Below, piece after piece: positions 4,484 to 32,767 of a stretch of 39,975 bases of DNA. The DNA lies in IMG/VR virus record IMGVR_UViG_3300043447_000338, positions 1-39,975 of that record. The stretch is one strand, 5' to 3'. The position numbers were made by a program, and so were the translations under genes. The first letter of the stretch is position 1. Each line of letters starts with the position of its first letter. The notes under the pieces are model-generated. The model saw only the letters and a list, made by a program, of their open reading frames with translations, was not told the DNA's origin and did not search any database. This DNA comes from a virus (lineage: Duplodnaviria > Caudoviricetes).

Positions 4484-4506
4484 AGGAGCCCCGCCTGAGC
4501 GGGGCT
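4484..4506 (-). terminator. Hairpin / putative intrinsic terminator after the major capsid gene
   Basis: AGCCCCGC-CTGA-GCGGGGCT stem-loop just downstream of the capsid stop; T-tract is weak. Confidence 0.5.
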
Positions 4507-8799: not shown

Positions 8800-10113
8800 T
8801 CAGCCTCTTAAGGTAAAGCAGCGCACGTCGATTGATCCAATGCTTGCGCCGCTGAATGTGCTTTGCCACTTAAGCAAGAGTGCTAGATTTATGCCACTCT
8901 CTGTAGCTCCACTTTGTCTAGGTAAGGCACTACGCATCACGACAGTCTCTGTGAGCGTCGTAGCCTCTGGCCCCAGCTTAAGCCAGAATGGGGGCAGCAA
9001 ATATTGATTGTTGGTTGTATTGCCCCGAGCGATAAGTTCTAGCTCTTTGGCATTGGCCAAATTCAGTGCATTGAATCTGACTTCAACAATGGCCTCACAG
9101 CGGGATGGGTCTATCGCTGTAATTGCCCGGCCCGTGGTTGCCATGCGAATTTCTGTCCACCCACCGCCCACGCCCCCTGTAGGGGTTACTCTCTGCCACG
9201 GTACTTGATTCTCATCTGAAATATCTGCTGCGACAACTGATGCAGTGCCCGCACCAAAGAATGTGTCAATGCTGAACCCAGTGATGAGTGTACCACTCCA
9301 GCCTCCAGCAGAGAATGATCCGCTGCCCACTCCAGCAGGGTTGTTGCCCCACTGATTGCTAGATGGCGTGACTATGTAGGTGTCTGTATTGCTGGTGACC
9401 ACTTGAAGTGGGTAGCTGTAGCCGCGTATAGCGTATTCAGTAGTCAGCAAGTTCCCGCCACGAATGCCCATTAGTCGCACACCTGCCGGGTTCATGTGGA
9501 TGCCGTCGCTGAAGTATGTGCTGATGCCTGCTCCAGCAGGTACTTGCCCGACGCGCAAAGCTGCTCCATCATCAATATAAATGACGCCCGGCACAGCTCC
9601 ACCCCCGTAAGCGGCAGCTATGCCCGCATTGATGTTCTGCACAGACGCGTCTTTGCCCGATGGATTAGACTCTGGAGCTGTGATTGGCGGCACTGAGCCA
9701 ATTATCACCTGCTCTGCATAGGTGAGACACTTGGTCACTAGCGTGGCATAGTTAGCGGATATCCCAGACCAGTTCGTCAGCGCCCGTGCATCATTTGTGC
9801 CACAGCGCAGGAAGACAGTGCCCAGCTTAGGCAGTCCAAGTGCGGCGGCAATGCCGGCGAGCCCTGGAGAGCCCGCTGTGTAACTGTTGTCTATGCGAGA
9901 GAGTATCTGTGCCGTGGTCTCTGTCGCTACTCCGATATTGAGTACAGGCTTCAGGACGCCACCAGCAATACCGCCCATGTAAGTGACAGTAGTTGCTTCG
10001 TAAGTTGCGTTCTGAGTGAGCGAGTCTCCGACAAGCGCAGTCGCAACATCAGGGAATAAAAACTTACCCCCGACAACCAGTGCCGTTCCGGCAGGAGCAA
10101 CATAGTCTGTCAT
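8800..10113 (-). CDS. SGNH/GDSL esterase-domain virion protein
   Basis: Blocks GDSLT (I), GTND (III) and DGIH (V) are present; C-terminal beta-sandwich-like region. Confidence 0.8.
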   Translation of the reverse strand: MTDYVAPAGTALVVGGKFLFPDVATALVGDSLTQNATYEATTVTYMGGIAGGVLKPVLNIGVATETTAQILSRIDNSYTAGSPGLAGIAAALGLPKLGTVFLRCGTNDARALTNWSGISANYATLVTKCLTYAEQVIIGSVPPITAPESNPSGKDASVQNINAGIAAAYGGGAVPGVIYIDDGAALRVGQVPAGAGISTYFSDGIHMNPAGVRLMGIRGGNLLTTEYAIRGYSYPLQVVTSNTDTYIVTPSSNQWGNNPAGVGSGSFSAGGWSGTLITGFSIDTFFGAGTASVVAADISDENQVPWQRVTPTGGVGGGWTEIRMATTGRAITAIDPSRCEAIVEVRFNALNLANAKELELIARGNTTNNQYLLPPFWLKLGPEATTLTETVVMRSALPRQSGATESGINLALLLKWQSTFSGASIGSIDVRCFTLRG

Positions 10114-10589
10114 GTGTTTGGAATCCGGAACACGAAACCAACCCCATCAGTGCCATTCCAGCGGATCTCTACAGGAGCTCCTACGAGAGATAGTGTGCCA
10201 GATGCGCTCAGCTCCACAGCAGCTACAGCGCGTTTGTTGGCGTCTGTGTTATTGTAGATAATGCCCCAGGCGATGTTCGCAGGTCCGGCAGCGTCCTGCG
10301 CCAGGGGACCTACTTTATTAGCCGAGAAACTGATGATGCCTGAACTGTTAGAGACTGCCTCACCCGTTAGAGGTATTGGCCCCGGGTACGATGTGCCAGC
10401 CGTGCTTACTTGATTAGTAGCAAAGTTGGTGGTGCCCGTGCCGCCCCAGTGCGGGGCAGGAGTGGTCTTCAAGGGAGTGGTTACAGTAGTCGCAAACCCT
10501 ATACGGAAGTCGTCTCCGCTAAAATTGTGAACTTTATTGAGAATGTCGATGACTGCTTGGTCAAAGACGATAACTGATCCAGTAGCCAT
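10110..10589 (-). CDS. Virion structural protein
   Basis: 159 aa; DILNKVHNF..DDFRIG...WGIIYNNT pattern seen in phage virion proteins; abuts the portal stop. Confidence 0.55.
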   Translation of the reverse strand: MATGSVIVFDQAVIDILNKVHNFSGDDFRIGFATTVTTPLKTTPAPHWGGTGTTNFATNQVSTAGTSYPGPIPLTGEAVSNSSGIISFSANKVGPLAQDAAGPANIAWGIIYNNTDANKRAVAAVELSASGTLSLVGAPVEIRWNGTDGVGFVFRIPNT

Positions 10590-12628
10590 TATGCTTCCTC
10601 TTTAGAAAATGTGTCTAAGATTTCTTGCTGTTGCTGCGCTAAGTCTCCGACTATCTTAGTCAGTTGAGCTATCGCGTCTTTGATCTGATCCAGCTCATCG
10701 TCTTCTTTTTCGATCTCTTTTTCTTTTTTCTCTGCCGCCTTGCCCTCTTGATCTAGCGCGAGCTCAAGTTGTTTTTGCCCGTGCAGCTCTTTGTCCTTAG
10801 TGAGGTTCATATTAGCAATCTGCAGCTTGACCTCTGCATCTTTGTCGACCTCGTACTTCTTAACCTGAGCGTTGATGTTGGCGACTTCAAGTGATGTGTC
10901 CGGCTTCTCTTGCTGCTCAGGCGGTGGGGCTTGAATTTGCTGAGCCGCTGCCACAGCTTGATCAAACACGCTCTCAATGTCCGAGCTCGCTTTGAAGGAT
11001 GCTGTAGCCCATTGCAGAATCTGCAAGATAAATGGCAGTGCCTGGGGCATGCCTTGGGTCATTTGTGCGGTTTGGCTCACAAACTGCCCCACAGAGGTGA
11101 GATACTCCATGCGCATCTCACGCTCTGCGTTGTAGTCTGCGATTGAGAGGCTTTCCTCAGAGATTTCAATGCGGTAACGGCTTGCGTCATACTGCTTGAG
11201 CAAGGCCACAGCAGGCTGAACAAACTGAGCAGACTCCGTAAACTCCATCTGGCTCTGTTTGATGATGACATCTGGCTGGAAGTGCTTTGAGATGATCTCT
11301 GCCTTAATCCGCATGGCGTGCCGCACAAACTCGCCCACATCCTGCTGCGTGAGTTGTAGCCGGACGGAAGAGTACTGAGCCTTGAGTGTCTGGGCCTTGG
11401 CAGTTTCCCGTGGGTTGCTGGAGCCCCGCATAATGTCACTAATGCTGGTGAGCTCATAAATTTGGCCAATGACGGCCTGCCGTTGAATCATCAACTTCTC
11501 TAGCACAGCCGCCACCTGCTCAACTGGATACCAGTCGATGGAGCCCTTCATACCATTTTTCTCTGAAAATACCGCCCAATTGTCTACAGCGACCATGTTG
11601 AGCTCTGGGCCGGTTAAGATGGACTTAAGCTCAGTCACTGTAGCGTCGTAGGCGCCCACCACGCGCAGAGACTTCGTCAGAGAGTTAATTCGCGAGTTCA
11701 AAACGTCTAATTCATCGTACTGGTCCTGGGCCATGACGTAGTCAGGTCGTGGAATCAGGCTATCAGTGGAGTGGGTGGCAAATAGGGGCTTCGGGCATGG
11801 GAAAAAGCCGTCTAGCTTGAGAAAATCGTCTTTTACGTCTAAACACTCGTCCAAAACAGGCGAGCACCAGTAGATTTTGTTCGTATCCTTACACCAAACC
11901 TCATAAATCTCTACCCGCCCCTTGCGGAAGCCTTTAGGCAGGTGCTCTTTGGTTGCTTCAGTAGAGATTACAGCGTGCTTGATCTCGTCAAACTTCTCTT
12001 TTCCGAATTTTTTGATGAATTTGGTCTTTCTAAGCCAAATCCGCCTTGAAATCCAACCTACTTCGTCCCAAGTGCGGGCAGCTTCCCAGGCAAAGTCGCG
12101 CCAATGTACGGCCTCGGTGTAAACCTGCTCATCTACAATGATGGATTTTGGAATCGCCGGAGAGATTTCCTCCCCTGAGAAGGGATCCACAACCGCTGGG
12201 ATTGTGGAATTCTGCACTTGAGCCTCATATCGCAGCCACACTTGGCCCATGCCGGGCACTAAACGGTCCTCCACGGCGGACTTAAACGCCTTGTGCATGT
12301 CGCTGTCGTCTTTAGTGACGCCGATAGACAGTAGCCGCTCTAAAATAAGGGCCGCAACGCGGGCAATGTCGTCTTTAGAGTCACCATACTGCCGCGCCAC
12401 GGTGGGGGCGGGTGGAGTGGCGTAGAGTGCAGACTTGAGAATCTGCACATTCGCCCAGAAAATGTTGTAGCGCTTCTTATTCTCGTCTTCATCATTCGTA
12501 GCGAGATACCGCTCCACTACTCGACCAGCGGAAGTCCGCCACTTGTCGTCAAGCTGCTTCTCGACCTTGGCGATTTCCGAACACCACCACTTGGCGGAGT
12601 ATTCCTTAATGGCGTCGTCTGTGCTCAT
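10589..12628 (-). CDS. Portal protein
   Basis: About 679 aa after TerL; YNIFWANVQILK.ALY, FFPCPKPL and ISDIMRG motifs; start reassigned to ATG 12628, which overlaps the TerL stop (ATGA). Confidence 0.85.
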   Translation of the reverse strand: MSTDDAIKEYSAKWWCSEIAKVEKQLDDKWRTSAGRVVERYLATNDEDENKKRYNIFWANVQILKSALYATPPAPTVARQYGDSKDDIARVAALILERLLSIGVTKDDSDMHKAFKSAVEDRLVPGMGQVWLRYEAQVQNSTIPAVVDPFSGEEISPAIPKSIIVDEQVYTEAVHWRDFAWEAARTWDEVGWISRRIWLRKTKFIKKFGKEKFDEIKHAVISTEATKEHLPKGFRKGRVEIYEVWCKDTNKIYWCSPVLDECLDVKDDFLKLDGFFPCPKPLFATHSTDSLIPRPDYVMAQDQYDELDVLNSRINSLTKSLRVVGAYDATVTELKSILTGPELNMVAVDNWAVFSEKNGMKGSIDWYPVEQVAAVLEKLMIQRQAVIGQIYELTSISDIMRGSSNPRETAKAQTLKAQYSSVRLQLTQQDVGEFVRHAMRIKAEIISKHFQPDVIIKQSQMEFTESAQFVQPAVALLKQYDASRYRIEISEESLSIADYNAEREMRMEYLTSVGQFVSQTAQMTQGMPQALPFILQILQWATASFKASSDIESVFDQAVAAAQQIQAPPPEQQEKPDTSLEVANINAQVKKYEVDKDAEVKLQIANMNLTKDKELHGQKQLELALDQEGKAAEKKEKEIEKEDDELDQIKDAIAQLTKIVGDLAQQQQEILDTFSKEEA

Positions 12629-13980
12629 AGTCTTATAGAGTTCCTGCTGCTGGGGCCAGTGTCCCAAATGTCATTCAATGCAAAGCCGTAGTGTACGGGC
12701 CGCGCTGGGCCGTTGGCAAGGGGTTTTGCGCGGCTGGTTACGTACTCGCTATCGGTAGGCACGTCAAACGACAGGTTGGCATACCTAAACATGTCTGCAT
12801 GATGGCTGGACCAGTCATGTACAGGCTCGTTAGAGTACACTTTCTTATCTTCATCATACTTTCTATGATAGGATTTGAGTGCTAAGATTAGCGACTCGCA
12901 CTCTCGCTCATTAAAATACCACCGGGGGAACATTTTGCGCACTGCGGCGATACCATCCAGTATGGAAAGCTCCGGCACCAGCTTAGGGCGTAGGTTGGCG
13001 TCCCTAAAATTCTCAATAATGGACTTTCCCGTCTGTAAGCTCTTCGCTCTCGCGTCGTGTGGGAGGTAAATCTTGTCTAGACGGAGCTTCTTTTTATGCG
13101 TGTAGTCCTTAATATACTTGATGTAGTGGCTAATCGGCTTCAAATTATCACTGTAGGCGTGCCCCATCAGCAGGCCGTCAGGTCGGGGCTGGACAAAGCC
13201 AATGCTGGTAGAGTCTGTATAGCCCAAATCCATAATCGCGCTCACTGGAGCATGAGGATCAAATTGAAAATCTCCGATTCTACGCTCTTCCATCATCTGC
13301 TCAATTTGTCGAGCATAAATAGCCCCGCGCACGCTGGCCTCAAAGCTACAAAGCATCTCCTGAGCATACTGCTCAGGATCCATGATCTTCTTCATCTCTG
13401 CCAAGTCATCTTCTGGGATGACTCCAGTCTCTGTAACTGGGAGGAAGACTACGAGCCAGTCTTTTTCTCGTCGTTTGGCGTAGTACATGTCCCTAAAGTG
13501 GTTGGGCCCGTTGGGCGTGCCCATGAACACGGCCCATCCTCGTCGGTCGATAAGGGCTGGGAGGAGGACTTCTTTCCAAACAGACTCCACCATGTTGCCG
13601 AATTCATCAAGGACAACACCATCAAAGTACATACCTCGGAATGAGTCGGGGTTGTCGGCTCCGTAGAGTGTGATGCGGGGGTTGTTGGGGAGGGCTTCAA
13701 GTTCGACATACAGTCCTGCCTCGCTTATCTTTGGCTTGAATGGGAGGGCAGCCTCTTTTAGATACTGCCATGCGATGTCTTTGGCCTGTCTTAAGAGTGG
13801 AGCTACATATGCGTACCTGGGGGCTTGGCGGGTGTTACGGGTGGCGCGCTCAATAAGGTCATTAATCGCCGCTACGGTTTTCCCCGCTCGACGGTGGGCC
13901 ACTAGAATAGACCACCTCTGATTCCTCATGTGGAAGGGGAGAAAGTGTTTGCGGGGCTGGTAGTTGATTTTTATGCGCAT
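12625..13980 (-). CDS. terL: Terminase large subunit
   Basis: Walker A AHRRAGKT, Walker B VVLDE, coupling motif GTP, nuclease motifs DLG..DST, LPHDA and HDWSSH.AD.FRY; probable start MRIKINYQPR at 13980. Confidence 0.95.
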   Translation of the reverse strand: MRIKINYQPRKHFLPFHMRNQRWSILVAHRRAGKTVAAINDLIERATRNTRQAPRYAYVAPLLRQAKDIAWQYLKEAALPFKPKISEAGLYVELEALPNNPRITLYGADNPDSFRGMYFDGVVLDEFGNMVESVWKEVLLPALIDRRGWAVFMGTPNGPNHFRDMYYAKRREKDWLVVFLPVTETGVIPEDDLAEMKKIMDPEQYAQEMLCSFEASVRGAIYARQIEQMMEERRIGDFQFDPHAPVSAIMDLGYTDSTSIGFVQPRPDGLLMGHAYSDNLKPISHYIKYIKDYTHKKKLRLDKIYLPHDARAKSLQTGKSIIENFRDANLRPKLVPELSILDGIAAVRKMFPRWYFNERECESLILALKSYHRKYDEDKKVYSNEPVHDWSSHHADMFRYANLSFDVPTDSEYVTSRAKPLANGPARPVHYGFALNDIWDTGPSSRNSIRL

Positions 13981-14263
13981 TGTGGTTGTCCAGATCCGTA
14001 GTGGGGGTGCTGTGCTCAATTATGAGCGTACCGTTGGGGTCCGTGATATTCAGGCTGGTGGAGGGCAGCAACTTAGCGAAAAGTGGGTAGAATTTATCCG
14101 GGTTCTTATTGGCCCAGAGTGTGAGGCGGGTGGTGCCCCCAATGAGCTCAAATGCTTGGGTAAATGCCTGGACAATGTCCATGCGGTTAAAGCCATCCCG
14201 TGGGCGGGAAAAGCGGGGCAGTTTGTCAGTCTGCTCGATGGGGGTAAAGTCTTGGTCATCCAT
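13862..14263 (-). CDS. terS: Terminase small subunit
   Basis: AFELIGG..RL..WA..NP..FY.LF.KLLP motif; directly upstream of and overlapping terL; probable start ATG 14263. Confidence 0.7.
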   Translation of the reverse strand: MDDQDFTPIEQTDKLPRFSRPRDGFNRMDIVQAFTQAFELIGGTTRLTLWANKNPDKFYPLFAKLLPSTSLNITDPNGTLIIEHSTPTTDLDNHNAHKNQLPAPQTLSPLPHEESEVVYSSGPPSSGENRSGD

Positions 14264-14329
14264 GGGTGGGCAGCCTAGCACAGGCCCTGGGGGGTTGACA
14301 AGGGGTGTGAACTATAGAAATACTGAGTT

Positions 14330-14407
14330 TCTAAATAGAAAATGCCACGACATCTAAATAGTTGACCAAGTGGTAATGCTAGGATATCTAAATAGTCGAA
14401 TAAATAG
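14330..14407 (+). repeat. Four direct repeats (TC)TAAATAG upstream of terS
   Basis: TCTAAATAG at 14330, 14353 and 14387; TAAATAG at 14401. Confidence 0.75.
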
Positions 14408-14490
14408 AAAATACACGGGGGCGGTGGGTAGAGGTTTTAGTTTCGGTGGGGGTCTCCTCCCCCGGGGGCCAAGGCGCTCCAGGCCCCCCA

Positions 14491-14610
14491 GTTAGTACTT
14501 ACTTACTTACACCGCACGGCGGCCCTAAGTTAGTGGGCGCTAACTAACTTAGGGCCCCAAGTTGGTGCGTAGCGTGGCCCTAAGTTAGTGGGCACTTACT
14601 AACTTAGGGC
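14491..14610. repeat. GTTAGT-N8-ACTAAC palindromes, including two near-identical 13-14-bp-stem hairpins
   Basis: GGCCCTAAGTTAGT-GGGCGCTA-ACTAACTTAGGGCC (14521-14556); GCCCTAAGTTAGT-GGGCACTT-ACTAACTTAGGGC (14577-14610); degenerate copy at 14491-14510. Confidence 0.85.
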
Positions 14611-14647
14611 TGGGTTAGTGGGGTTTTGTGTAACAAGGTGTTACGGC

Positions 14648-14930
14648 GGTGGCACCTGCCACCGGGCGGGCGGGGGCGGGTAAGTTGTTGTTTTGTAAGG
14701 GTTTTGCCCCCGTGGCAGGCCATTTTGGCGGTGGCAGGTGGCAGGTGGCAGGTGCTAAAAGTTGCCAAAACTGCTGTGCGTGTGCGTGCGCGCACACATA
14801 GGCAGGCGTACATACACACATATTACTTTATAAATTTAACTGCCACCTGCCACCCCTACACAAAACACGCCTTACAAAACAACAAGTTAGCGCGGTTACG
14901 GGTGCCAGTGGCAAGTTGTGGCAAGTGCCC
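14648..14930. other. Putative replication origin: inverted iteron arrays around an AT-rich core
   Basis: GGTGGCA tandem repeats (14730-14753) and inverted TGCCACC copies (14840-14854); perfect 16-bp inverted repeat 14685-14700/14870-14885; AT core 14821-14840; lies downstream of the primase-helicase gene. Confidence 0.55.
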
Positions 14931-14959
14931 CCACCTTACCACCCGCCACCAACAGGCGT

Positions 14960-14983
14960 AAAAAAGCCCGCGCAGGGCGGGCT
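14960..14983 (-). terminator. Intrinsic terminator after the 106-aa gene
   Basis: Minus strand AGCCCGC-CCTGC-GCGGGCT followed by a T run. Confidence 0.8.
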
Positions 14984-15004
14984 GGTGTGGTAGTGGGGGT
15001 GTGC

Positions 15005-15325
15005 TTACTCTGCCGCAGCTACAAGATAGCCCTTACGCACCGCGTAGCCCACAAAGTGGCTAGGTACGCCCTGCTCAACAACCTGGGCCACTGTGGCGGG
15101 GCCCTGTGCCAGTGCCTTACCAATAATGGCCCACCATGCGTTGTTGTGCTCACAAGCCACCTTGTAGGGCTTAGGGCCCATTACAACGCGCAAGGTTGCG
15201 TTTTTAGGCTGCTTAGCTACCTGGGCCTTAACTGGCACGCTTGGCGCTGCCAAAAGCCCGCTAAACGGGGTTGTAGGTGCCACAACAGTTGCTGCCTTAA
15301 CTTTGCTGTTTGCTTTAGTTGCCAT
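15005..15325 (-). CDS. Small basic protein (106 aa), putative DNA-binding
   Basis: SD AAAGG, own terminator; contains no Asp and only 3 Glu; C-terminal similarity to 26671-27123. Confidence 0.7.
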   Translation of the reverse strand: MATKANSKVKAATVVAPTTPFSGLLAAPSVPVKAQVAKQPKNATLRVVMGPKPYKVACEHNNAWWAIIGKALAQGPATVAQVVEQGVPSHFVGYAVRKGYLVAAAE

Positions 15326-15494
15326 TTTGTGCCTTTACATTGCCACCAAACAGGGCGGCTAGCTGGTGCATACCACTTGGTTGCACAGTTGCTATTATGC
15401 ACTCAGGCACCATTAGTACCATAAGGGTAAACCCTACAAATTGTAATAATGTGTAACTGCGCTATTGCCACCACACGCCCGCATGGTGTAGGCA

Positions 15495-15556
15495 CTTGTT
15501 AGTGGGCATTTACTAACAAGCCCATTGCCCTTATTTGTTGGTAAGCACACACTAAC
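15495..15556. repeat. Two further GTTAGT-N8-ACTAAC-type palindromes
   Basis: CTTGTTAGT-GGGCATTT-ACTAACAAG (15495-15520) and GTTGGT-AAGCACAC-ACTAAC (15537-15556). Confidence 0.7.
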
Positions 15557-15571
15557 TGCTGTCAACTGTGG

Positions 15572-17638
15572 TTAAAGCCCGCCGCCAAGCTTGCCGCAGT
15601 GGGCGTCCCACTGGCGCTTGACTCGGTCGGAGTCCCACAAGTCGATCTTGTCTCGGTCTGTAAGAATCCAGAACCGTTTAGTTGCACCGTTGATTTTAAC
15701 CTTCACCGTGTTAAAGCCTACCTCCTGCATGCGCTTGCCCAGGGCTATCTTCAACCCAGGGGACACATGAGCACCAGCATCCCCACTCAGGTAAGCCCAC
15801 GCAAGCTGTTCACTCGTCAAGCACTCCGCCCCTAGCAGTACAGGTGGCAGCACCTCAGTAGGGTCGGCCCACAGAGTGCGCACCCACTGTTCCATGCTGG
15901 AGCGGGTCGAGTCCGTCACAAACTCTTTAGCTTCCGTGTGCGGAGCGCGTCCGTGGGGGTCGAATCCTGTAAGGTCCACCTGTAGTAACCAGCCGTACAG
16001 GGCGCCAGCACCGCCGCCCTGTACCCAGGCAAAGTAGTCATCCCAATAAGTAGCATCAAATATAACCTGCGTGGGCGTTTTGCAGTGGATGACGCATGCT
16101 CTACGATCTCCATCGTCCAACTTTATAGAGTCACTGTAATTGCTGGTGCTCACTAAATTGAGGCAATTGCGAGCTTCATACTCTTCTCGCCCCTTGGCGT
16201 TGACTGTAAGTGTGGGCGCGGTGATCAGCATTTTGAGTTTGTTGGTCAGTATAAGAGCATCTTTGTCATTCCCACCCTGCACCTCGTCCAAGTTTACAAA
16301 TTGACGAGAGGCGTAGACCTGATTGAAGTCGGACACAATACGTTCTTTGCCCAGACTAATCGCATTCTCGCCGTAGATTTCCAATATGGGAGTGAGTGCA
16401 GCATTCTTCCCACACCCGCTGGCCCCGTACATGTGGATAAATTGGCCTGTTTTGGCCCCTAAATTCTGCAATGGGTAGGCAAACCACTGGTAAATCCAGC
16501 GTCTAAGGTCAGCATCTGGACACAACTGCTCCCATAAGCGCTGCCACGGCTCCGCACTGCCGCCCGTGGGTTCCACACCCATACCGCACCACAAGTTAAT
16601 CAACTCTCCCTCAACCAGTGGAGGGTCTCCAGGTGAGTATTCCAGCCGTTCAACTTCCTTACGCCCAGGCCATTGCAGCCACACGCGGGGCACATTCACC
16701 ACCTTCTCCCCTGTCTCGTCTGGGGCGGTGTAGTGCGCGTAGTTGACGCCACAAAAGTCCTGTGTGGACATTAACACATGCGTGCGCTGATCCACCACTT
16801 TCTTTAATGAGCGTACAATACACACTTCCTCATTCAATTGGAGGCGTAGACTCTCCAATTCGCCAATGCCAACCTCCACGGCAGCGTCTAGGCCAGCTAA
16901 AAACGCAGCGCCAGCATCAAAGCCAAGGTGGGCGCAGTAGTCGTCAAAGCCCCAATCTGCCGCAGCCCACTCAGCGGGGGGTTTGGGGAGTAGCAAATGT
17001 TGGACTTTTACCTTACAAATGAGGCTCATGCGCGCAGCAAAACGCCTGATGGCGAGGGCTACGTCGTCATTCGTGGCAGCATTAGAGTCGAAGACTACGA
17101 CGCATTTAAGCTCTTTCTCCCGCCAGGGCAGGTCACGGAGCGCGGGGAGCAGTGGGAGCTCGTTGGCCTTGCTGCCCCAGCCCCACACGCCATTCAGCCC
17201 CACGCTGTAGGTGCCGCATTTAGCGCCAGCAATCGCCTTGATGCAGGACTCTTGAATGTAAATGGTGCTACCTTGGGGAATATTTGTCCAATCCAGCGTG
17301 CGGGGCAGGTAGGCGCAGGGTGGGTATTTAGGGGGGCAGTACATTTTGCCCCGACTCTTTGGCGCGGCGGCAGCCCAACCGGTGGGCGGGGCAAGCTCAA
17401 CTAGACGAGCACTCCACCAATCTTCCATCTCTCCACGCACGTTGTGGTGGGTGAATACTGCGGCTGCTCGGTCATCATACAGCTTGCCAATGTCAGCACA
17501 GCGTAGAATGCGAATGTCGTGAGCATCTATGTCTTCCCGACTGACGCCTCGTTCTCGTAGGTAGGCGTAAACCCTATCAATTCCTATTTCATTCTCTGGT
17601 GTAGGTAGCTCAGGCAGGTCTTGGGCGCGGTAGTTCAT
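15572..17638 (-). CDS. Primase-helicase (DUF3854-like TOPRIM + D5-like SF3 helicase)
   Basis: IQES.IKA, GLNGVWGW, VVFDS and GFDDY TOPRIM motifs; Walker A GASGCGKN, Walker B NLDEV, STSN and DRR. Confidence 0.85.
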   Translation of the reverse strand: MNYRAQDLPELPTPENEIGIDRVYAYLRERGVSREDIDAHDIRILRCADIGKLYDDRAAAVFTHHNVRGEMEDWWSARLVELAPPTGWAAAAPKSRGKMYCPPKYPPCAYLPRTLDWTNIPQGSTIYIQESCIKAIAGAKCGTYSVGLNGVWGWGSKANELPLLPALRDLPWREKELKCVVVFDSNAATNDDVALAIRRFAARMSLICKVKVQHLLLPKPPAEWAAADWGFDDYCAHLGFDAGAAFLAGLDAAVEVGIGELESLRLQLNEEVCIVRSLKKVVDQRTHVLMSTQDFCGVNYAHYTAPDETGEKVVNVPRVWLQWPGRKEVERLEYSPGDPPLVEGELINLWCGMGVEPTGGSAEPWQRLWEQLCPDADLRRWIYQWFAYPLQNLGAKTGQFIHMYGASGCGKNAALTPILEIYGENAISLGKERIVSDFNQVYASRQFVNLDEVQGGNDKDALILTNKLKMLITAPTLTVNAKGREEYEARNCLNLVSTSNYSDSIKLDDGDRRACVIHCKTPTQVIFDATYWDDYFAWVQGGGAGALYGWLLQVDLTGFDPHGRAPHTEAKEFVTDSTRSSMEQWVRTLWADPTEVLPPVLLGAECLTSEQLAWAYLSGDAGAHVSPGLKIALGKRMQEVGFNTVKVKINGATKRFWILTDRDKIDLWDSDRVKRQWDAHCGKLGGGL

Positions 17639-17685
17639 GCCGTGGCCCCCTTGCTGCAGTGGGCGGGCTGCTGTATAGTGTGCAT
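17635..17685 (-). CDS. 16-aa upstream ORF (MHTIQQPAHCSKGATA) coupled to the primase start
   Basis: SD AAGGA 5 nt before the ATG; its TGA overlaps the primase ATG (ATGA). Confidence 0.35.
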   Translation of the reverse strand: MHTIQQPAHCSKGATA

Positions 17686-17711
17686 TGTTGTCCTTCGTTA
17701 AGTGAAAGCAT

Positions 17712-17748
17712 AAGCCCGTTGTCTCTTCCCCGACACAACGGGCTTTTT
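17712..17748 (+). terminator. Stem-loop with T-tract in the primase leader
   Basis: AAGCCCGTTGT...ACAACGGGCTT followed by TTT. Confidence 0.6.
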
Positions 17749-17783
17749 CACGCGCCGTAGCTTGTAAGCTGCAACGCCCTTAC

Positions 17784-17813
17784 AGTGTAGGCCAATACCT
17801 TGTTGGTGGGCAA
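17784..17813 (-). promoter_or_regulatory. Putative sigma70 promoter toward the primase gene
   Basis: TTGCCC-N18-TACACT on the minus strand. Confidence 0.4.
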
Positions 17814-17824
17814 TTACAGACCGC

Positions 17825-17853
17825 TTGCACGCCGTTTTGGACTGCCCTATACT
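17825..17853 (+). promoter_or_regulatory. Putative sigma70 promoter for the rightward early operon
   Basis: TTGCAC-N17-TATACT, 40 nt before the ATG at 17893. Confidence 0.65.
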
Positions 17854-17892
17854 GGCCCCGCCGCTGTGTAGCGGTGTAAATGGAGTATTCTA

Positions 17893-18105
17893 ATGCACAT
17901 AGAATCCAAGCCCTACGGGCCGCTCGTTAAAGTAGTCAGTAAATCAAACTTCGGCATCACTTCTTTAGAGGTGCGGGTGCTGACTAAAGACGGTTGGCAA
18001 GTGCGTGCCTTGTGGGCCGACGCCCTGCAGGACGGCGTGATGGAGGCTGCCGACCAAAAAGCCCGCCAACTGCGCGTCAAACTACTTGAGGGAGAAATAG
18101 CATGA
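17893..18105 (+). CDS. Hypothetical protein
   Basis: 70 aa, SD GGAG, first gene after the promoter. Confidence 0.6.
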   Translation: MHIESKPYGPLVKVVSKSNFGITSLEVRVLTKDGWQVRALWADALQDGVMEAADQKARQLRVKLLEGEIA

Positions 18106-18473
18106 GCACCACTAAACTCGAACCTGGAGACCGCGTGAAGACTTACAGCGGGCGGGCTACCACCATTGTCGGCCACACCCCGAACCATTTTCGTGAACAA
18201 TACCCAATCACAGCTTGGGCACAAGCTCCCGCAGACCCAGAGAATTTTTCTGAGGAGTTTGACGGGCATGAGTCTCTTACTTTGACAAAAAGCGGGGATT
18301 TCTTTCTTGGAACGCCCGGCGGCCTTTCTCTTGATCTTGACACTGTTGTTAAGTTCCGAGACGCTATGCTAACCCTGGCTACAGACCCCAAAGGCAAGTG
18401 GACTGACCTGCCAGAAGAGACATTCCTAGAGATTGCTGAGGCTGTGAGGGATTACCTGCTGTTGCCAAAATGA
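18102..18473 (+). CDS. Hypothetical protein
   Basis: 123 aa, SD GGGAG, ATGA overlaps at both ends. Confidence 0.6.
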   Translation: MSTTKLEPGDRVKTYSGRATTIVGHTPNHFREQYPITAWAQAPADPENFSEEFDGHESLTLTKSGDFFLGTPGGLSLDLDTVVKFRDAMLTLATDPKGKWTDLPEETFLEIAEAVRDYLLLPK

Positions 18474-18841
18474 CCAGGATTAACTGCGTTCCTGTGGAAG
18501 AGTTGTCCGACAAGCACTTAGGGGCCGAATACCGCGAACTGCCCCGAGTGTTCGCCCTGGCGCAAGCTGCCTACCTGCGCGGAGAAGACCCTAACACCTA
18601 CCCGCAAAAGTACGTGCTGGGTCCAGGGCACGTAAAGTTTTTCTACGACCGACTGGGATGGCTCACAATTAGATTTCATCAAATTGTGAATGAGTGTTTA
18701 GCCCGTGGGCGTGTTTGTAATTTTAGAGCCGCTCCACGAGTAACAAATCCCCCTGAGTGGTACAGGGCGTGGGAGCCCACTCCCGAAGCGCTGGCGCTTA
18801 ATCGCCAGAGAATAGCAGATAGAAAAGGAGGAAATATGTAG
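18470..18841 (+). CDS. denV: Pyrimidine-dimer DNA glycosylase / AP lyase (T4 endonuclease V family)
   Basis: MTRINCVPVEELSDKHLGAEYRELPRVF (catalytic N-terminal Thr and Glu), LG.GHVKFFYDRL. Confidence 0.92.
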   Translation: MTRINCVPVEELSDKHLGAEYRELPRVFALAQAAYLRGEDPNTYPQKYVLGPGHVKFFYDRLGWLTIRFHQIVNECLARGRVCNFRAAPRVTNPPEWYRAWEPTPEALALNRQRIADRKGGNM

Positions 18842-19122
18842 TGGCATTCTTTACCGTCAATCTTTGGCTAGACAGTCCAGATCTTAAATCAATCAATGAA
18901 AGGTTAAAATACATCATGGCTACACAAGCTCAACTCGCTGCTCAATTGACTGCTCTTGCTACTCAAGCAGAAAAAGCTAAGGCGGAAGTCACCACCAAAC
19001 TGGCAGACTTGCAGACAGCATTGGATAACGCCGGCTCCACCACACCAGAGGTAGACGCTGCCCTGGCCGCGTTGGCTGCCGCTGTGCAAGCTACGGACGA
19101 TATCGTCCCTGACGTAGTCTAA
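18841..19122 (+). CDS. Ala-rich coiled-coil hypothetical protein
   Basis: 93 aa; heptad pattern ending DDIVPD; start uncertain (GTG 18841 or internal ATG). Confidence 0.55.
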   Translation: MAFFTVNLWLDSPDLKSINERLKYIMATQAQLAAQLTALATQAEKAKAEVTTKLADLQTALDNAGSTTPEVDAALAALAAAVQATDDIVPDVV

Positions 19123-19124
19123 AC

Positions 19125-19808
19125 GTGATAGCTCTACTGTTCTCTGGAGGCAAAGACTCTAGGCTATTGCTAGAGGGCTTTGCCCCTTTTTTAGACCAAA
19201 TTACAGTCGTTTGGGTAAACCCAGGCGACTACCTGCCTGATGATGAGGCGTATGTAAGAGACTTACTTAGCCAATGCCCGCACCATACAATCATAGACTC
19301 CGATGTCAAAAGTCACATCAAAGCTTGTGGCTGGCCTGTGGACGTTGTGCCTGTAAACTGGACCGTGCCCGGACAAATAGGACATGGCAAGCGACCTTTT
19401 ACGTTTCAACCGTACACTGAATGCTGTGCTCACAATATTTGGAAGCCACTGAATGACTGGATTGCAGCCAATGGCGTGACTAAGGTGTACACAGGCCAGC
19501 GGAACGACGAAGAGTTCCACGACCGTAGACGGGAAGTGAAATCTGTTACCCACAATGGCGTAGAGTGGGTGAGCCCACTTGCTAACTGGACAGAGGCTGA
19601 GGTGTGGGCTGCCCTGCACCGCTTGCAGCGGCAAAAGGGCTTGCAGGTAGCCCCTAGCTATTTACGAGGCGCCACCGCCAGCGTAACATGCGCCCACTGC
19701 ACCGCCTACAGGCCCAAGGCCAGGGGGCGCGTACTGCCCCAGCAAATACAGTCTACAGTGGATGCCGCGCTACTTGCCCTCCACTTAGCAATTAAGGAGT
19801 CCATGTAA
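19125..19808 (+). CDS. PAPS-reductase-family (PP-loop) protein
   Basis: FSGGKDS PP-loop, CC pair, GQRNDE, PLANWTEAEVW and CAHC. Confidence 0.85.
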   Translation: MIALLFSGGKDSRLLLEGFAPFLDQITVVWVNPGDYLPDDEAYVRDLLSQCPHHTIIDSDVKSHIKACGWPVDVVPVNWTVPGQIGHGKRPFTFQPYTECCAHNIWKPLNDWIAANGVTKVYTGQRNDEEFHDRRREVKSVTHNGVEWVSPLANWTEAEVWAALHRLQRQKGLQVAPSYLRGATASVTCAHCTAYRPKARGRVLPQQIQSTVDAALLALHLAIKESM

Positions 19809-26670: not shown

Positions 26671-27123
26671 ATGGCAAAAGGTAAAAAGTTTGCTTCGCAA
26701 GAAGCTGTTGTAGAGGTTGCGGCTACGGAGGCAGCCCCTAAGGCTGCGGCCAGCCGGGGCCCCCGTGGCACTGTAGAGACCGCAGTGATTACTGTGCTTG
26801 TGGGCGACAACCCCAAGCGCGCAGGTAGCAAGGCCCACACAGTGTTCAGCCACTATCAGTCTGGCCAGACTATCGCCGCTTTTGCAGACGCCCTGGCCAC
26901 TGCTGGCCTGGGCAAGGAAGCTACACCTAACCTCGTGTACGACGCCAAGCACGGCTACATCGCCATTGAAGGCTACGACCCAGGCGAGATCGTGGTAAAA
27001 GCTGCCAAGGAGCCAAAAGCCCCTAAAGAAGCAAAGGCCCCCAAGGCTAAGAAAGAGAAGAAAGTAGCCGCTGCGGAAGACGCCTCCGCAGTTGAGGCTG
27101 CTGTACAAGAAGAAACGATGTAA
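26671..27123 (+). CDS. Lys/Ala-rich putative DNA-binding protein with a histone-H1-like tail
   Basis: NPKRAGSKA core; KAAKEPKAPKEAKAPKAKKEKK tail; own promoter and terminator. Confidence 0.7.
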   Translation: MAKGKKFASQEAVVEVAATEAAPKAAASRGPRGTVETAVITVLVGDNPKRAGSKAHTVFSHYQSGQTIAAFADALATAGLGKEATPNLVYDAKHGYIAIEGYDPGEIVVKAAKEPKAPKEAKAPKAKKEKKVAAAEDASAVEAAVQEETM

Positions 27124-27248: not shown

Positions 27249-28028
27249 ATGGAAGTGTTTATTCTAACGCATGGGCGGGCTACAGGGGCGCAGCAGCACA
27301 CCGCAGCCGCATTGCTCGATGCCGGCATAGCTTTCAAGTATGCGGTGCAAGAGAGCGAACTGCCCAAATGGTCTTGGTGTAGTGCAGAGATAGTAGTCCT
27401 GCCTCCACACATAAAAGATGTTTCCGCCACTCGTGACTATCTTGTTCATGATGTGGGTGGGGACGCCCACATCTTTATGTTTGACGACGATCTGCGATTC
27501 GCTGCCCGCAGAGACGACGATGCCACTAAATTCACCCCAGCAACTTCCGCAGATCTATTTTCTGCCCTTGAGCGAGTCAATATAAATTTGTCCATCAATC
27601 CGATGGTTGGGCTGGGCGCCCGTGAGGGGGGCAACCGCGTCACCGATCAATGGGTGTATGAGACTCGTATCATGCGAGCCTTTGGGCTGAATAGAAACTA
27701 CCTGCGTCGACACGAGATAACATTTGCTCCACTCAAGCTAATGGAAGACTTCCACGTCAATTTACAGATACTTGAGTCTGGGAAAACTACAAGCGTCTAC
27801 AATCTTTTGGTGACCGATCAAGTAGGCGGCTCTAATTCTGCTGGCGGGTGCAGCACCTACCGCACGCCTGAACTACAGGAAGCTTCCGCCAATCTGCTGG
27901 CAGCCCGCCACCCCGGTGTTGTGAAAGTGGTGAAGAAAACCACCAAGGGCGCATGGGGCGGGGGCACCCGTACTGATGTGATTGTGCAGTGGAAGCAGGC
28001 TGCCAAATTTGCGAGGAACAGAGTATGA
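27249..28028 (+). CDS. GT-A glycosyltransferase of the TET-associated (TAGT) / base-J glucosyltransferase-like family
   Basis: FILTHGR, SATRD, FMFDDDLRF (DxD), MEDFHVNLQIL, GGCSTYR and V.WK motifs; SD GGAG, start ATG 27249. Confidence 0.8.
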   Translation: MEVFILTHGRATGAQQHTAAALLDAGIAFKYAVQESELPKWSWCSAEIVVLPPHIKDVSATRDYLVHDVGGDAHIFMFDDDLRFAARRDDDATKFTPATSADLFSALERVNINLSINPMVGLGAREGGNRVTDQWVYETRIMRAFGLNRNYLRRHEITFAPLKLMEDFHVNLQILESGKTTSVYNLLVTDQVGGSNSAGGCSTYRTPELQEASANLLAARHPGVVKVVKKTTKGAWGGGTRTDVIVQWKQAAKFARNRV

Positions 28029-28873
28029 GAGCCATGAATGCTAGTGATCTTGCCTATTGGATTGTTGAACGTGACCTTATGCGTGAGCGGAAAGAATATC
28101 CAGACAATCCACGCCCAGAATGGAAGTGTGGCTGGAGTGATGACCCCCACATGGGGCTGATTCGCTATTGCAACGTGCGCCGTGAGGATGACAAGGTAAC
28201 CCGCTGGCTTGCCAAGCACTGGCGCCCACAGCACAACAGCATGTGGGAGCTGACCCTGGCACGGATGCTAAACCACATCCCCACTCTAGAAATTTGCCTG
28301 CCCCTGCTACAGTGGCAAGACCCATTGAAGGGAGTGTTGGGCGAGCTAAAGCTGCTGCGCGCTACGGGGGAGAAAGTCTTTACTTCCGCCTACACCATCA
28401 GCACGGCAGGCAAAAGCATGGATAAGCTTGACTACGTGGTGGACTGGGTGGTGGGGGCAGTGAAGTGCAGAGAGATTGCTAGTGGCTACAAGCCTAAGCG
28501 GCTGGCGGAGGCTGCCGCGTGGCTGGAAGATTTTGATGGGTTGGGTAGCTTTTTGGCTGCCCAAGTAGTGGCGGACGCTAAAAACACCCCCAGCAACCCC
28601 CTAAAAACCGCGCCAGACTGGCAAACATGGTGCGCCCTAGGCCCAGGTAGCTTGCGCGGCCTTACGGCGCTGCGTGGGCGTAACGTAACGGCAAGGTATT
28701 TCCAAAAAGAAATATTCTCCGCCTGGAGAGAAGTCAAACCTATGCTGCCTACCCATCTACAAGACCTGCACATGCAGGACTTCCAAAACTGTCTCTGTGA
28801 GTTCTCCAAATACGCCAAAGCCTTGAACGGAGAAGGGAGGCCCCGCAATGGCTATAACGCTGGGAGAGGCTAG
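28025..28873 (+). CDS. aGPT-PPlase clade 1 / 5hmdU-DNA-kinase helical-domain family (HhH-glycosylase-like fold) thymine hypermodification enzyme
   Basis: WIVERD..R, D....YCNVRREDDKVT.W, GLGSFLAAQVVAD, GPGS.RGL and DFQNCLCEFSKY. Confidence 0.8.
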   Translation: MRAMNASDLAYWIVERDLMRERKEYPDNPRPEWKCGWSDDPHMGLIRYCNVRREDDKVTRWLAKHWRPQHNSMWELTLARMLNHIPTLEICLPLLQWQDPLKGVLGELKLLRATGEKVFTSAYTISTAGKSMDKLDYVVDWVVGAVKCREIASGYKPKRLAEAAAWLEDFDGLGSFLAAQVVADAKNTPSNPLKTAPDWQTWCALGPGSLRGLTALRGRNVTARYFQKEIFSAWREVKPMLPTHLQDLHMQDFQNCLCEFSKYAKALNGEGRPRNGYNAGRG

Positions 28874-29042
28874 ACTATGGGGAGAGGTACACGGGGCATT
28901 GAATCTCGCAGTGTCTTGGTATGATGGCACTATCTCACTTCACCAATTCATAAGTGAGACTGAAATGGATGTGTTCTGTAAGAAACATCAGTTAACTTTT
29001 ATTGAGGAGAGTAGCAATGACGACAGCAATATTGAAGGTTAG
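28848..29042 (+). CDS. Hypothetical protein within the modification cluster
   Basis: 64 aa, SD GGGAGG; overlaps both neighbours. Confidence 0.5.
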   Translation: MAITLGEARLWGEVHGALNLAVSWYDGTISLHQFISETEMDVFCKKHQLTFIEESSNDDSNIEG

Positions 29043-29985
29043 GAACGTAGAGCAAGCTTTGTCCGACGGCTTTTGGTGGCTGCGCGCAGCCGGGGTGCCC
29101 GAAAACAGCCGTAACGGCCCCGTTCTGGTGTCTCCAGGCCCTGTGGTTACGGAGTATTCTCACCCCACAGAGCGCGTACTATTCAATGCCCGTAGAGATG
29201 CGAACCCCGTATTCCACTTGGTGGAGGCTCTGTGGATGTTGGCTGGCTTGAACGATGTCACGTTCTTGGAGCCATACAATGCGAATATGCGTACCTACGC
29301 AGAGCCTGACACAGACATTATTCATGGCGCGTACGGCTACAGGTGGCGCACCCTGTTTAATGTGGACCAGCTGACCCTAGTGGTGAATCAACTGGTGGCC
29401 GACAGGGAAACGCGGCGTGCCGTTGTGCAGATGTGGTCTGCTGCGGATGATCTATACAAAGATAAGGTGGATGTGCCATGTAATACGCAAATCTATTTCG
29501 ATTTGCGTGGTGGCGTGCTGAACATGGCTGTGTGCAACCGCAGTAACGACATGCTGTGGGGCGCCTACGGCGCAAACGCGGTGCACTTTAGCGTGTTGCA
29601 GGAGGTTATAGCTGCCGCCGTGGCTGCCCCTGTGGGGGTGTACAGGCAATTTAGCAATAACTTCCACGTCTACACTGAGAATGAGATGGTGCAAAGCTTC
29701 CTAGAAGTGCCACCATCCATATCATTTACAGCATACCCAGGCGGAGCTGTGCCCCTTATTCAGCCATCAGAATCCTGGACTAGCTTTCTGGCAGATTGCC
29801 GAAAGCTATTCTACACGGACACCGGCGTTTTTGCCACAGAATTTATCCAAGACATTGCCTCTCCACTGATGCGGGCATATATCTATAGGAAGGAACGGGG
29901 AGTACTACCCCCTTACGTGTCCAGCATTCCCACATGTGACTGGAAACTGGCATTTCAAGAATGGGTAGCAAGGAGAGAAGCATGA
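29017..29985 (+). CDS. Thymidylate-synthase homologue, probable dUMP hydroxymethylase
   Basis: RDANP.FH..EALWML.G, HGAYG.RWR, DQL, TRRAV, PCN (catalytic Cys), RSNDMLWGAYGAN (Asn, consistent with dUMP specificity), NNFHVY; SD GAGGAG. Confidence 0.85.
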   Translation: MTTAILKVRNVEQALSDGFWWLRAAGVPENSRNGPVLVSPGPVVTEYSHPTERVLFNARRDANPVFHLVEALWMLAGLNDVTFLEPYNANMRTYAEPDTDIIHGAYGYRWRTLFNVDQLTLVVNQLVADRETRRAVVQMWSAADDLYKDKVDVPCNTQIYFDLRGGVLNMAVCNRSNDMLWGAYGANAVHFSVLQEVIAAAVAAPVGVYRQFSNNFHVYTENEMVQSFLEVPPSISFTAYPGGAVPLIQPSESWTSFLADCRKLFYTDTGVFATEFIQDIASPLMRAYIYRKERGVLPPYVSSIPTCDWKLAFQEWVARREA

Positions 29986-32603: not shown

Positions 32604-32763
32604 AGTTTGCGAACTCACTTTGCGTCATCGTTGGCCCGGCCTGTGTAGGCTGGGCCGCTGTCTGTATGGGGGGCGCGTCCAGTGCGCTGCGGCTAGCAAG
32701 CGCCTTACCTGCTGCGCCCGCGCCGCCTGGGCCAAGTAACTGTAAACGGGTTGCTGTATCCAC
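32503..32763 (-). CDS. Possible small gene after the endolysin
   Basis: GTG start 7 nt after AAGGAG; overlaps the convergent ORF by about 100 nt. Confidence 0.3.
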   Translation of the reverse strand: MDTATRLQLLGPGGAGAAGKALASRSALDAPPIQTAAQPTQAGPTMTQSEFANSTRSSAAQLAARQRKLAQLLREREAALAPPPAY

Positions 32764-32767
32764 GGCA

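Follow-up and report, generated by a model that had tools for sequence, protein, structure and literature searches.

Several cultured phages, among them M6, YuA, PaMx11, ViI and phiW-14, hypermodify thymine (T) starting from 5-hydroxymethyldeoxyuridine, and in the gene sets reported for them a dUMP hydroxymethylase-type thymidylate synthase (TS) stands beside a protein of the aGPT-Pplase1 family (PMC8989533, PMC6449724). This hypermodification is reported to favour TG and TC steps in M6, ViI and phiW-14 (PMC6449724), and a phage T-dioxygenase is reported to prefer NTC (PMC13229309). Here we describe a 39,975-nucleotide (nt) stretch, IMG/VR virus record IMGVR_UViG_3300043447_000338 (hereafter the window), which is a circular phage genome with its initial 100 bases repeated at its end, and which carries both a thymine-modification cluster and, at 14479-15605, an island almost free of the dinucleotide TC and its complement GA. 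The window shares with the M6/ViI/PaMx11-type phages the pairing of a TS homolog with aGPT-Pplase1, and their reported TG/TC preference resembles the TpC context suggested by the island. It differs from them in having no match to a 5-hydroxymethyluracil (5-hmU) kinase or to aGPT-Pplase2 and in placing a glycosyltransferase in that slot, and the cultured phages tested lack both the island and the small gene that it covers.

The gene set of the window, a TS homolog with aG/PT-PPlase1 and a glucosyltransferase, has been reported for phiJL001 and for uncultivated clusters of HTVC023P-type pelagiphages (PMC9599517). The phiJL001 protein gp18 is homologous to the product of window positions 26671-27123, but phiJL001 has no TC/GA island. 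In kinetoplastids, base J (glucosyl-hmU) ends transcription. The product predicted for the window is like base J and the products of phage DNA glycosyltransferases, in that a GT-A enzyme would place a sugar on 5-hmU (bioRxiv 2023.12.21.572611), although the hmU of the window would come from the nucleotide pool. Phage iggy, for which a GA-specific dPreQ0 mark has been measured (PMC10484667), likewise combines a bulky, dinucleotide-specific mark on the strand-symmetric GA/TC step with a GA/TC-poor terminal control region. Unlike the window phage, it marks G through DpdA, and its depletion is partial (11 steps against 58), with no gene fully purged. The leading end of T7 and the first-step region of T5 avoid restriction sites in the DNA that enters first, so that there too a motif is missing from DNA acting first, but what the window purges is a dinucleotide that is probably the site of the phage's own mark, and the purge extends to the choice of amino acids. 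We found no published description of such an island; searches on motif-free regions in modified phage DNA returned none, with the supplements of hypermodification papers, which perhaps hold context data, outside their coverage. The enzymes are of known kinds; for the island, taken as a feature of the genome, we found no counterpart in print.

The island contains 6 TC/GA steps in 1127 nt, as against 118 at the genome rate (10.5 per 100 nt) and a mean of 140, with a minimum of 108, in 5000 base shuffles of the same DNA. No TC or GA starts anywhere in the 530 positions 14479-15008, and the six residual steps, read on the plus strand as five TC and one GA, start at 15009, 15025, 15075, 15150, 15403 and 15562. 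The edges are abrupt (14478 and 15606), and the longest TC/GA-free gap elsewhere in the window is 142 nt. Every 5' context of TC is depleted (observed/expected of 1/27 for ATC, 4/35 for CTC, 1/28 for GTC and 0/29 for TTC), as are all 3' contexts, and TT, CT, CC, TG, TA and the gapped pairs TNC and TNNC stand near or above expectation, with TT/AA and TA raised. The AT count is halved (27 versus 58 expected) because ATC and GAT are lost. When all di- and trinucleotides were scanned across the window, TC/GA scored 85 and the next best word 16, which leaves no other word as the one truly depleted. Masking of the repeats left the same 6 steps in 771 nt, where 81 were expected; together with the shuffles, this rules out repeats or base composition as the cause. 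An earlier note, made from the letters of this DNA alone, had described a TC/GA-free start, only six steps in 1127 nt, sharp edges and an exclusion specific to TC/GA, all of which these counts bear out; the comparison of dinucleotides with shuffled sequence found no other that behaves in this way, and the objection that the repeats alone might explain the signal does not survive masking. The note was mistaken in calling the rest of the genome rich in TC/GA, which is in fact slightly under-represented there (observed/expected 0.82-0.87). A 39,867-nt contig from a freshwater run, possibly the source of the window, spans window positions 12000-19000 with zero differences. Five substitutions within the island, seen in one low-depth 150-nt piece, create no TC or GA but are too few to count. 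Two control regions, 17639-17892 and 32604-32767, are about half depleted (12 steps versus 27 and 7 versus 17, respectively).

The constant core of the island is a single conserved gene unit, a point that goes beyond the earlier note. On the minus strand the order is the end of the primase gene, a leader of 250 nt with two palindromic boxes, the small gene, a terminator, an origin-like element, three further boxes and a CCGGGGG motif. The small gene (15005-15325, minus strand) encodes 106 residues, with a basic Ala/Pro/Lys-rich tail and a C-terminal winged-helix domain. Its leader and promoter region (15326-15605, minus strand) takes in the final 11 primase codons and contains a GA-free ribosome-binding site, AAAGG, a candidate -10 element, CATAAT, picked out by eye at 15394-15399 and a TTGACA at 15562-15567, both on the minus strand. 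A hairpin with a T run resembling an intrinsic terminator follows the gene (14965-14983, minus strand). In the origin-like element at 14600-14900, inverted 7-mer repeats of the GGTGGCA type surround an AT-rich core (about 14820-14840), with a copy of TAAGTTGTTGTTTT on either side (14681-14694, plus strand; 14876-14889, minus strand). These iterons round an AT-rich core, in single copy and near a primase gene, suggest an origin; the GC-skew extremes of the window fall at 4494 and 32691 and not at this putative origin. With one mismatch allowed, 25 of 43 family sequences contain TAAGTTGTTGTTTT, either singly or as two inverted copies, as against none of 11 cultured phages, and the DNA around it is depleted of TC/GA (296 versus 708 expected), also in phages without an island over the gene.

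Three operator-like boxes of the form GTWAGY-N4-RCTWAC mark the left island edge (14491-14610), and two more lie upstream of the small gene (15498-15556); the pattern, which was drawn from the same sequences, has 45 matches in 110 kb near the gene versus 13 in 823 kb elsewhere. About 10 nt beyond the island end lies the conserved CCGGGGG-AG..CCCC motif (14447-14471, minus strand), which its position upstream of terS makes a candidate pac/cos site and which, as a loose pattern, was matched in 17 of 19 terS-bearing sequences. The probable small terminase subunit gene terS (13862-14281, minus strand) has no family hit, but is conserved directly before terL, the large subunit gene (12625-14019, minus strand), in relatives. 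On the other side is the primase/helicase gene (DUF3854 and DUF5906; 15572-17638, minus strand). The setting proposed in the earlier note, a region of origin, packaging and early genes, thus fits the origin-like element, candidate packaging site and putative early gene found here. An Rfam scan gave nothing near the gathering score. A sigma-70-like promoter, TTGACA-18-AATACT, at 14295-14324 on the plus strand points into the origin side of the island and is followed by a 34-nt tandem repeat (14341-14408).

Terminase and primase searches yielded 87 loci, and the comparison set comprised 22 whole IMG/VR contigs and 21 longer loci, giving 43 sequences besides the window, one of them a duplicate. 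The small gene is present in 34 distinct relatives. Its neighbour in podovirus-like members is terS, with both orientations represented; members of a second morphogenesis type have it next to a conserved pair of genes that we presume to be the packaging genes. A TC/GA island with a score above 25 covers the gene in 20 of the 34 relatives and is 462-1176 nt long; every strong TC/GA island among the relatives contains a copy of the gene. Where the contig allows, these islands start 65-370 nt before the gene start, and they stop 40-395 nt past the stop codon, matching the limits of promoter, gene and terminator. TC/GA-rich repeat blocks border many of them, and 18 of 38 flanks fall in the top decile for TC/GA (8/17 upstream and 10/21 downstream), the flanks in the window itself being average. 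A quick tree places both-strand islands in each of the main primase clades, and loss of the island therefore looks repeated. No close cultured relative was found, the best primase matches being at 22-30%, and a genome scan aimed at the host gave distant primase matches only (up to 36%). Four contigs (G002, G027, L001 and L003) have an end within the small gene or just ahead of it, which may reflect physical ends or breaks induced by repeats.

We compared each codon of the small gene in 27 relatives and the window with its synonymous expectation, holding the protein fixed. Both TC and GA were far below expectation in the window and in 15 of the 27 relatives; three showed a purge of GA only, equivalent to TC on the template strand, two of TC only, and seven of neither step. 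Asp and Glu codons require GA, and 52 of 150 family representatives have no Asp or Glu at all; the window protein has no Asp and three Glu, and these Glu codons with one Tyr-Leu junction account for four of the six residual steps in the island. Dipeptides of the type [MW][IMTNK], which force a GA, occur twice against 44 expected in 79 proteins with at most one Asp or Glu, but 27 times against 30 expected in 40 proteins with five or more. This confinement of the loss to the low-acid group shows selection on the DNA and not merely a basic protein. GA is missing from the ribosome-binding site in 8 of the 13 intact both-strand cases and present there in 6 of the 7 cases that have no island. The purge is selected and widespread in this uncultured phage family. 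Erasure of the sites by local mutation, through TC deamination or UV damage and without selection, could draw on the raised TT/AA and TA and on the pyrimidine-dimer glycosylase that the phage encodes. Conversion of GA to AA, however, predicts replacement of Asp and Glu by Asn and Lys, but the purged proteins have less Lys (4.8 versus 7.5%), an unchanged share of Asn and more Gln and Ala; the sharp edges also track gene signals. A local-mutation origin is largely refuted by these data, and we regard it as barely credible.

The same observations bear on the alternative offered in the earlier note, evasion of host systems that target unmodified TC-containing words, such as GATC/GANTC restriction-modification, Dnd, DarT or DddA-like enzymes. 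It has a precedent in the first-entering DNA of T7 and T5, which lacks target sites, and GATC is mildly under-represented genome-wide (0.75). CCGG (0.57) and GGCC (0.69) are both more depleted, however, and hundreds of such TC-containing sites persist in the rest of the genome (97%). Moreover, the purge takes in every TC context, much more than any motif of 4-5 nt would require, and it strikes the same step in lineages whose hosts are likely different. The pattern of amino-acid replacement is not that of C-to-T mutation, and the frequent TC/GA-rich flanks speak for TC as a useful mark and against TC as a host target. This alternative is poorly supported and in our judgement improbable.

The product of the small gene has no family in Pfam, PHROG or NCBIfam, but four close homologs at 68-86% identity and 143 representatives indicate that the gene is real; at cut-offs of E up to 1e-10 the family numbers at least 143 small proteins. 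The predicted model has a predicted local distance difference test score of 84-94 over residues 41-100 and shows three helices and a beta wing. It matched winged-helix domains with Z scores of 5.1-5.8 (root mean square deviation of 2.4-3.4 Å over 49-68 residues), and no solved fold scored above Z 5.8, values under 8 being such as may reflect a common arrangement. The winged helix of PriA, MarR and GntR resemble the model with template modelling scores of 0.60-0.72, and the best viral fold match was phiJL001 gp18 (Foldseek E of 0.04). A homolog of gp18 (E of 1e-9), a basic protein encoded at 26671-27123 on the plus strand, heads the modification cluster of the window and is, to judge by the model, likely a distant paralog of the island protein; profile comparison between the island family and this protein gave no sequence link. 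In four relatives the cluster-heading protein is fused to a pyrimidine-dimer glycosylase domain (L088:12966-13922, L091:1112-2053, L093:4248-5195 and L118:2321-3208), and in L008 the winged-helix domain occurs a second time, in an acidic version (9888-10211) just upstream of the small gene.

The modification cluster continues on the plus strand with a GT-A glycosyltransferase of the TAGT family (27249-28028; Pfam PF20691, 54 bits against a cut-off of 27.5; PHROG 842), a helical protein of the aGPT-Pplase1/HMUDK_hel family (27989-28873; PF18723) and a TS homolog with a dUMP hydroxymethylase signature (29002-29985). In an alignment, the TS homolog, which is 42-45% identical to the YuA, PaMx11 and Ab18 enzymes, has the catalytic Cys and an Asn at the N177 position, where the CMP hydroxymethylase MilA has Asp; an Asp occupies the L143 position, and its D-V-P-C matches the D-V-A-C of MilA. 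According to a reported residue rule, Asn at N177 indicates a uracil substrate and an acidic L143 position a hydroxymethyl instead of a methyl product (PMC13326640), and we infer that the enzyme makes 5-hydroxymethyl-dUMP (5-hmdUMP). Among the 58 open reading frames (ORFs) of the window there was no match to a P-loop 5-hmU DNA kinase in PHROGs or Pfam and none to aGPT-Pplase2 in Pfam, the window protein belonging to PF18723, clade 1. All 12 near-complete relatives encode the TS homolog and aGPT-Pplase1, and the slot of the glycosyltransferase holds TAGT in nine, a GT-B enzyme like the T4 beta-glucosyltransferase in two and a kinase-like gene in one (G026; 26.4 bits, cut-off 27), which has neither small gene nor island. 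Of the 11 with a glycosyltransferase, five have a both-strand island, one a one-strand island and five none.

A strand-symmetric footprint cannot separate TC from GA, and strict GA marking exists (PMC10484667), so the mark might instead sit on the purine of GA, as dPreQ0 does in iggy and CAjan. Against this, no DpdA, FolE/QueCDE or other purine-modifying gene was found in PHROGs and Pfam (58 ORFs each) or NCBIfam (29 ORFs), and the only modifying genes common to all island-bearing complete relatives act, by family assignment, on uracil; a purine mark is thus very improbable.

Gene neighbours in some relatives hint at the sugar. An ADP-heptose-type set (PfkB kinase, SIS isomerase, cytidylyltransferase-like protein and HAD phosphatase) adjoins the cluster in L093 (9047-11369), L110 (12658-14570) and L113 (16700-18594); heptose genes are found in G007, G018 and G019, and the two GT-B relatives have heptose-synthesis genes nearby, which suggests heptosylated hmU. 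In G004 and G022 the gene immediately preceding that of the glycosyltransferase encodes an FkbM methyltransferase (L091:416-1048 and L118:2958-3857), which suggests a methylated sugar. In L285 (1-2568), aGPT-Pplase1 is fused behind at least 580 residues, the N-terminal 580 of which belong to no Pfam family. A predicted complex of TAGT with aGPT-Pplase1 scored 0.28 against a mark of 0.32, giving no support for an association.

Taken together, these data make it very probable that the island is avoidance of the phage's own mark, and we lean, with some reserve, towards the view that it serves to keep this DNA readable on entry for the transcription and initiation proteins of the host. Going by the gene families, T would be replaced by 5-hmU, with the TS homolog supplying 5-hmdUMP, and the glycosyltransferase would add a sugar to a subset of 5-hmU after replication; the footprint points to T in TpC as that subset. 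The likeliest context reader would be aGPT-Pplase1, because it is the sole constant neighbour of GT-A, GT-B or kinase. As the gene unit lies just upstream of terS and the candidate packaging site, it would be the last part to be packaged and the first to enter, by analogy with the DNA upstream of terS in lambda and P22. Host sigma-70 RNA polymerase would then transcribe the unit from unmarked DNA, and the product, with its winged helix and basic tail, might bind phage DNA, either at the palindromic boxes of the edges or where it is marked, and so perhaps open the marked genome to transcription or replication. The gene unit and likely origin would have been purged because host enzymes must read them while the incoming DNA is fully marked. 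Bulky major-groove groups are reported typically to block bacterial RNA polymerase, which 5-hmU does not (PMC11550810). L008, L009 and L060 show the GA-only purge that a template-strand block predicts. G013 and G007, both glycosyltransferase phages without an island, avoid T|C and G|A codon junctions genome-wide (0.50/0.65 and 0.64/0.76, respectively); the ratios are 0.82/0.84 in the window and at least 0.94 in all 11 cultured phages. TC/GA over the whole contig of G013 (L097-L099) has an observed/expected of 0.63; G007 corresponds to L092-L094. Phage iggy offers a cultured parallel: its most GA/TC-poor stretch is the terminal control region (MN029011, 59958-60557; 11 steps versus 58 expected), with a depletion score of 28.8 against a permutation maximum of 10.9, although unrelated dinucleotides reach 27.6 in some real genomes; other GA/TC gaps in iggy lie at 27692, 39298 and 42698. 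The earlier note had already tied the island to the phage's own thymine-modification cluster, and this is still the best-supported reading, but the link is circumstantial; all 12 near-complete relatives carry the cluster, which leaves none without it for comparison.

Several results weigh against this explanation. In 11 cultured T-modifying phages there is no island for any dinucleotide matching the known preference (best TC/GA score below 9.5), even though phiJL001 has TAGT, aGPT-Pplase1 and the TS homolog; CAjan, with GA/GGC marks, scored 13.4 without a clear island. In the family itself, G007, G013, G015, G017 and G027 keep the small gene and a glycosyltransferase but have no island, and island state does not follow the clades of the three enzymes in quick FastTree trees. 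In G016 and G012, TC is absent from the coding strand only, opposite to the prediction of a template-strand block; G016 (L102:6125-7028) has about 900 nt with one coding-strand TC and abundant GA, a polarity opposite to that of L008, L060 and L009. A promoter scanner found no sigma-70 promoter for the small gene on its strand in the window, and glucosyl-hydroxymethylcytosine still permits transcription, as cited in PMC11550810. As to the context reader, the aGPT-Pplase1-type gp55 of M6 is reported to be dispensable in vitro (PMC8989533).

The main unexplained facts, the coding-strand-only purge of G016 and the relatives with the cluster but without an island, keep alive two alternatives that retain the TpC mark. 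The island might escape a modification-dependent host nuclease (type IV or END-like), with the product that enters first shielding the genome or blocking the nuclease. END nucleases are reported to restrict T-hypermodified phages, and phages to encode small inhibitors (bioRxiv 2025.03.31.646159); a one-strand purge of either polarity would suffice if cutting needs both strands marked, and patchy loss of the island fits host-dependent pressure. Most islands are nevertheless purged on both strands though one would be enough, their limits track transcription signals and do not lie at a constant distance from the candidate end, the flanks are so often TC/GA-rich, and the winged-helix fold is generic, with no match to a known inhibitor. 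We consider an escape from nucleases unlikely. Alternatively, the small protein, or its paralog at 26671-27123, might itself read marked TpC and coat or silence the genome, in which case the lack of TC would keep the origin and the protein's own gene free of it. The winged helix with its basic Ala/Lys/Pro tail, the fold match to the gene heading the modification cluster, the TC/GA-rich blocks at so many island borders and the joint absence of small gene and island from the cultured T-modifying phages would fit such a reader, but seven relatives keep the gene without having an island and the fold link is weak (the Foldseek match and the null profile comparison above), so that we think it quite unlikely.

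A wider form of the favoured explanation, which we offer only as a tentative and rather doubtful idea, is an epigenetic layout written by the phage: a TpC-glycosylated genome, silenced or shielded, in which an unmarked pioneer gene and origin are walled by mark-dense repeats and a histone-H1-like product acts as reader or licence factor. If it were true, the sequence by itself would show, through island footprints, which step an uncharacterised phage modifying enzyme targets. The islands bear on the question of how transcription by host RNA polymerase begins on phage DNA that is heavily decorated, and point to a cost of modification and its solution. They make TpC the candidate target step for the predicted glycosyl-hmU pathway. 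They also draw attention to an unnamed family of small proteins, with at least 143 members, that probably serve as pioneer factors or in anti-defence, and phage iggy is a cultured model for the principle.

Elsewhere in the window, the early operon includes a gene with a PAPS-reductase domain (19125-19808), which most relatives lack, and a GDSL lipase gene (8800-10113) lies among the virion genes.

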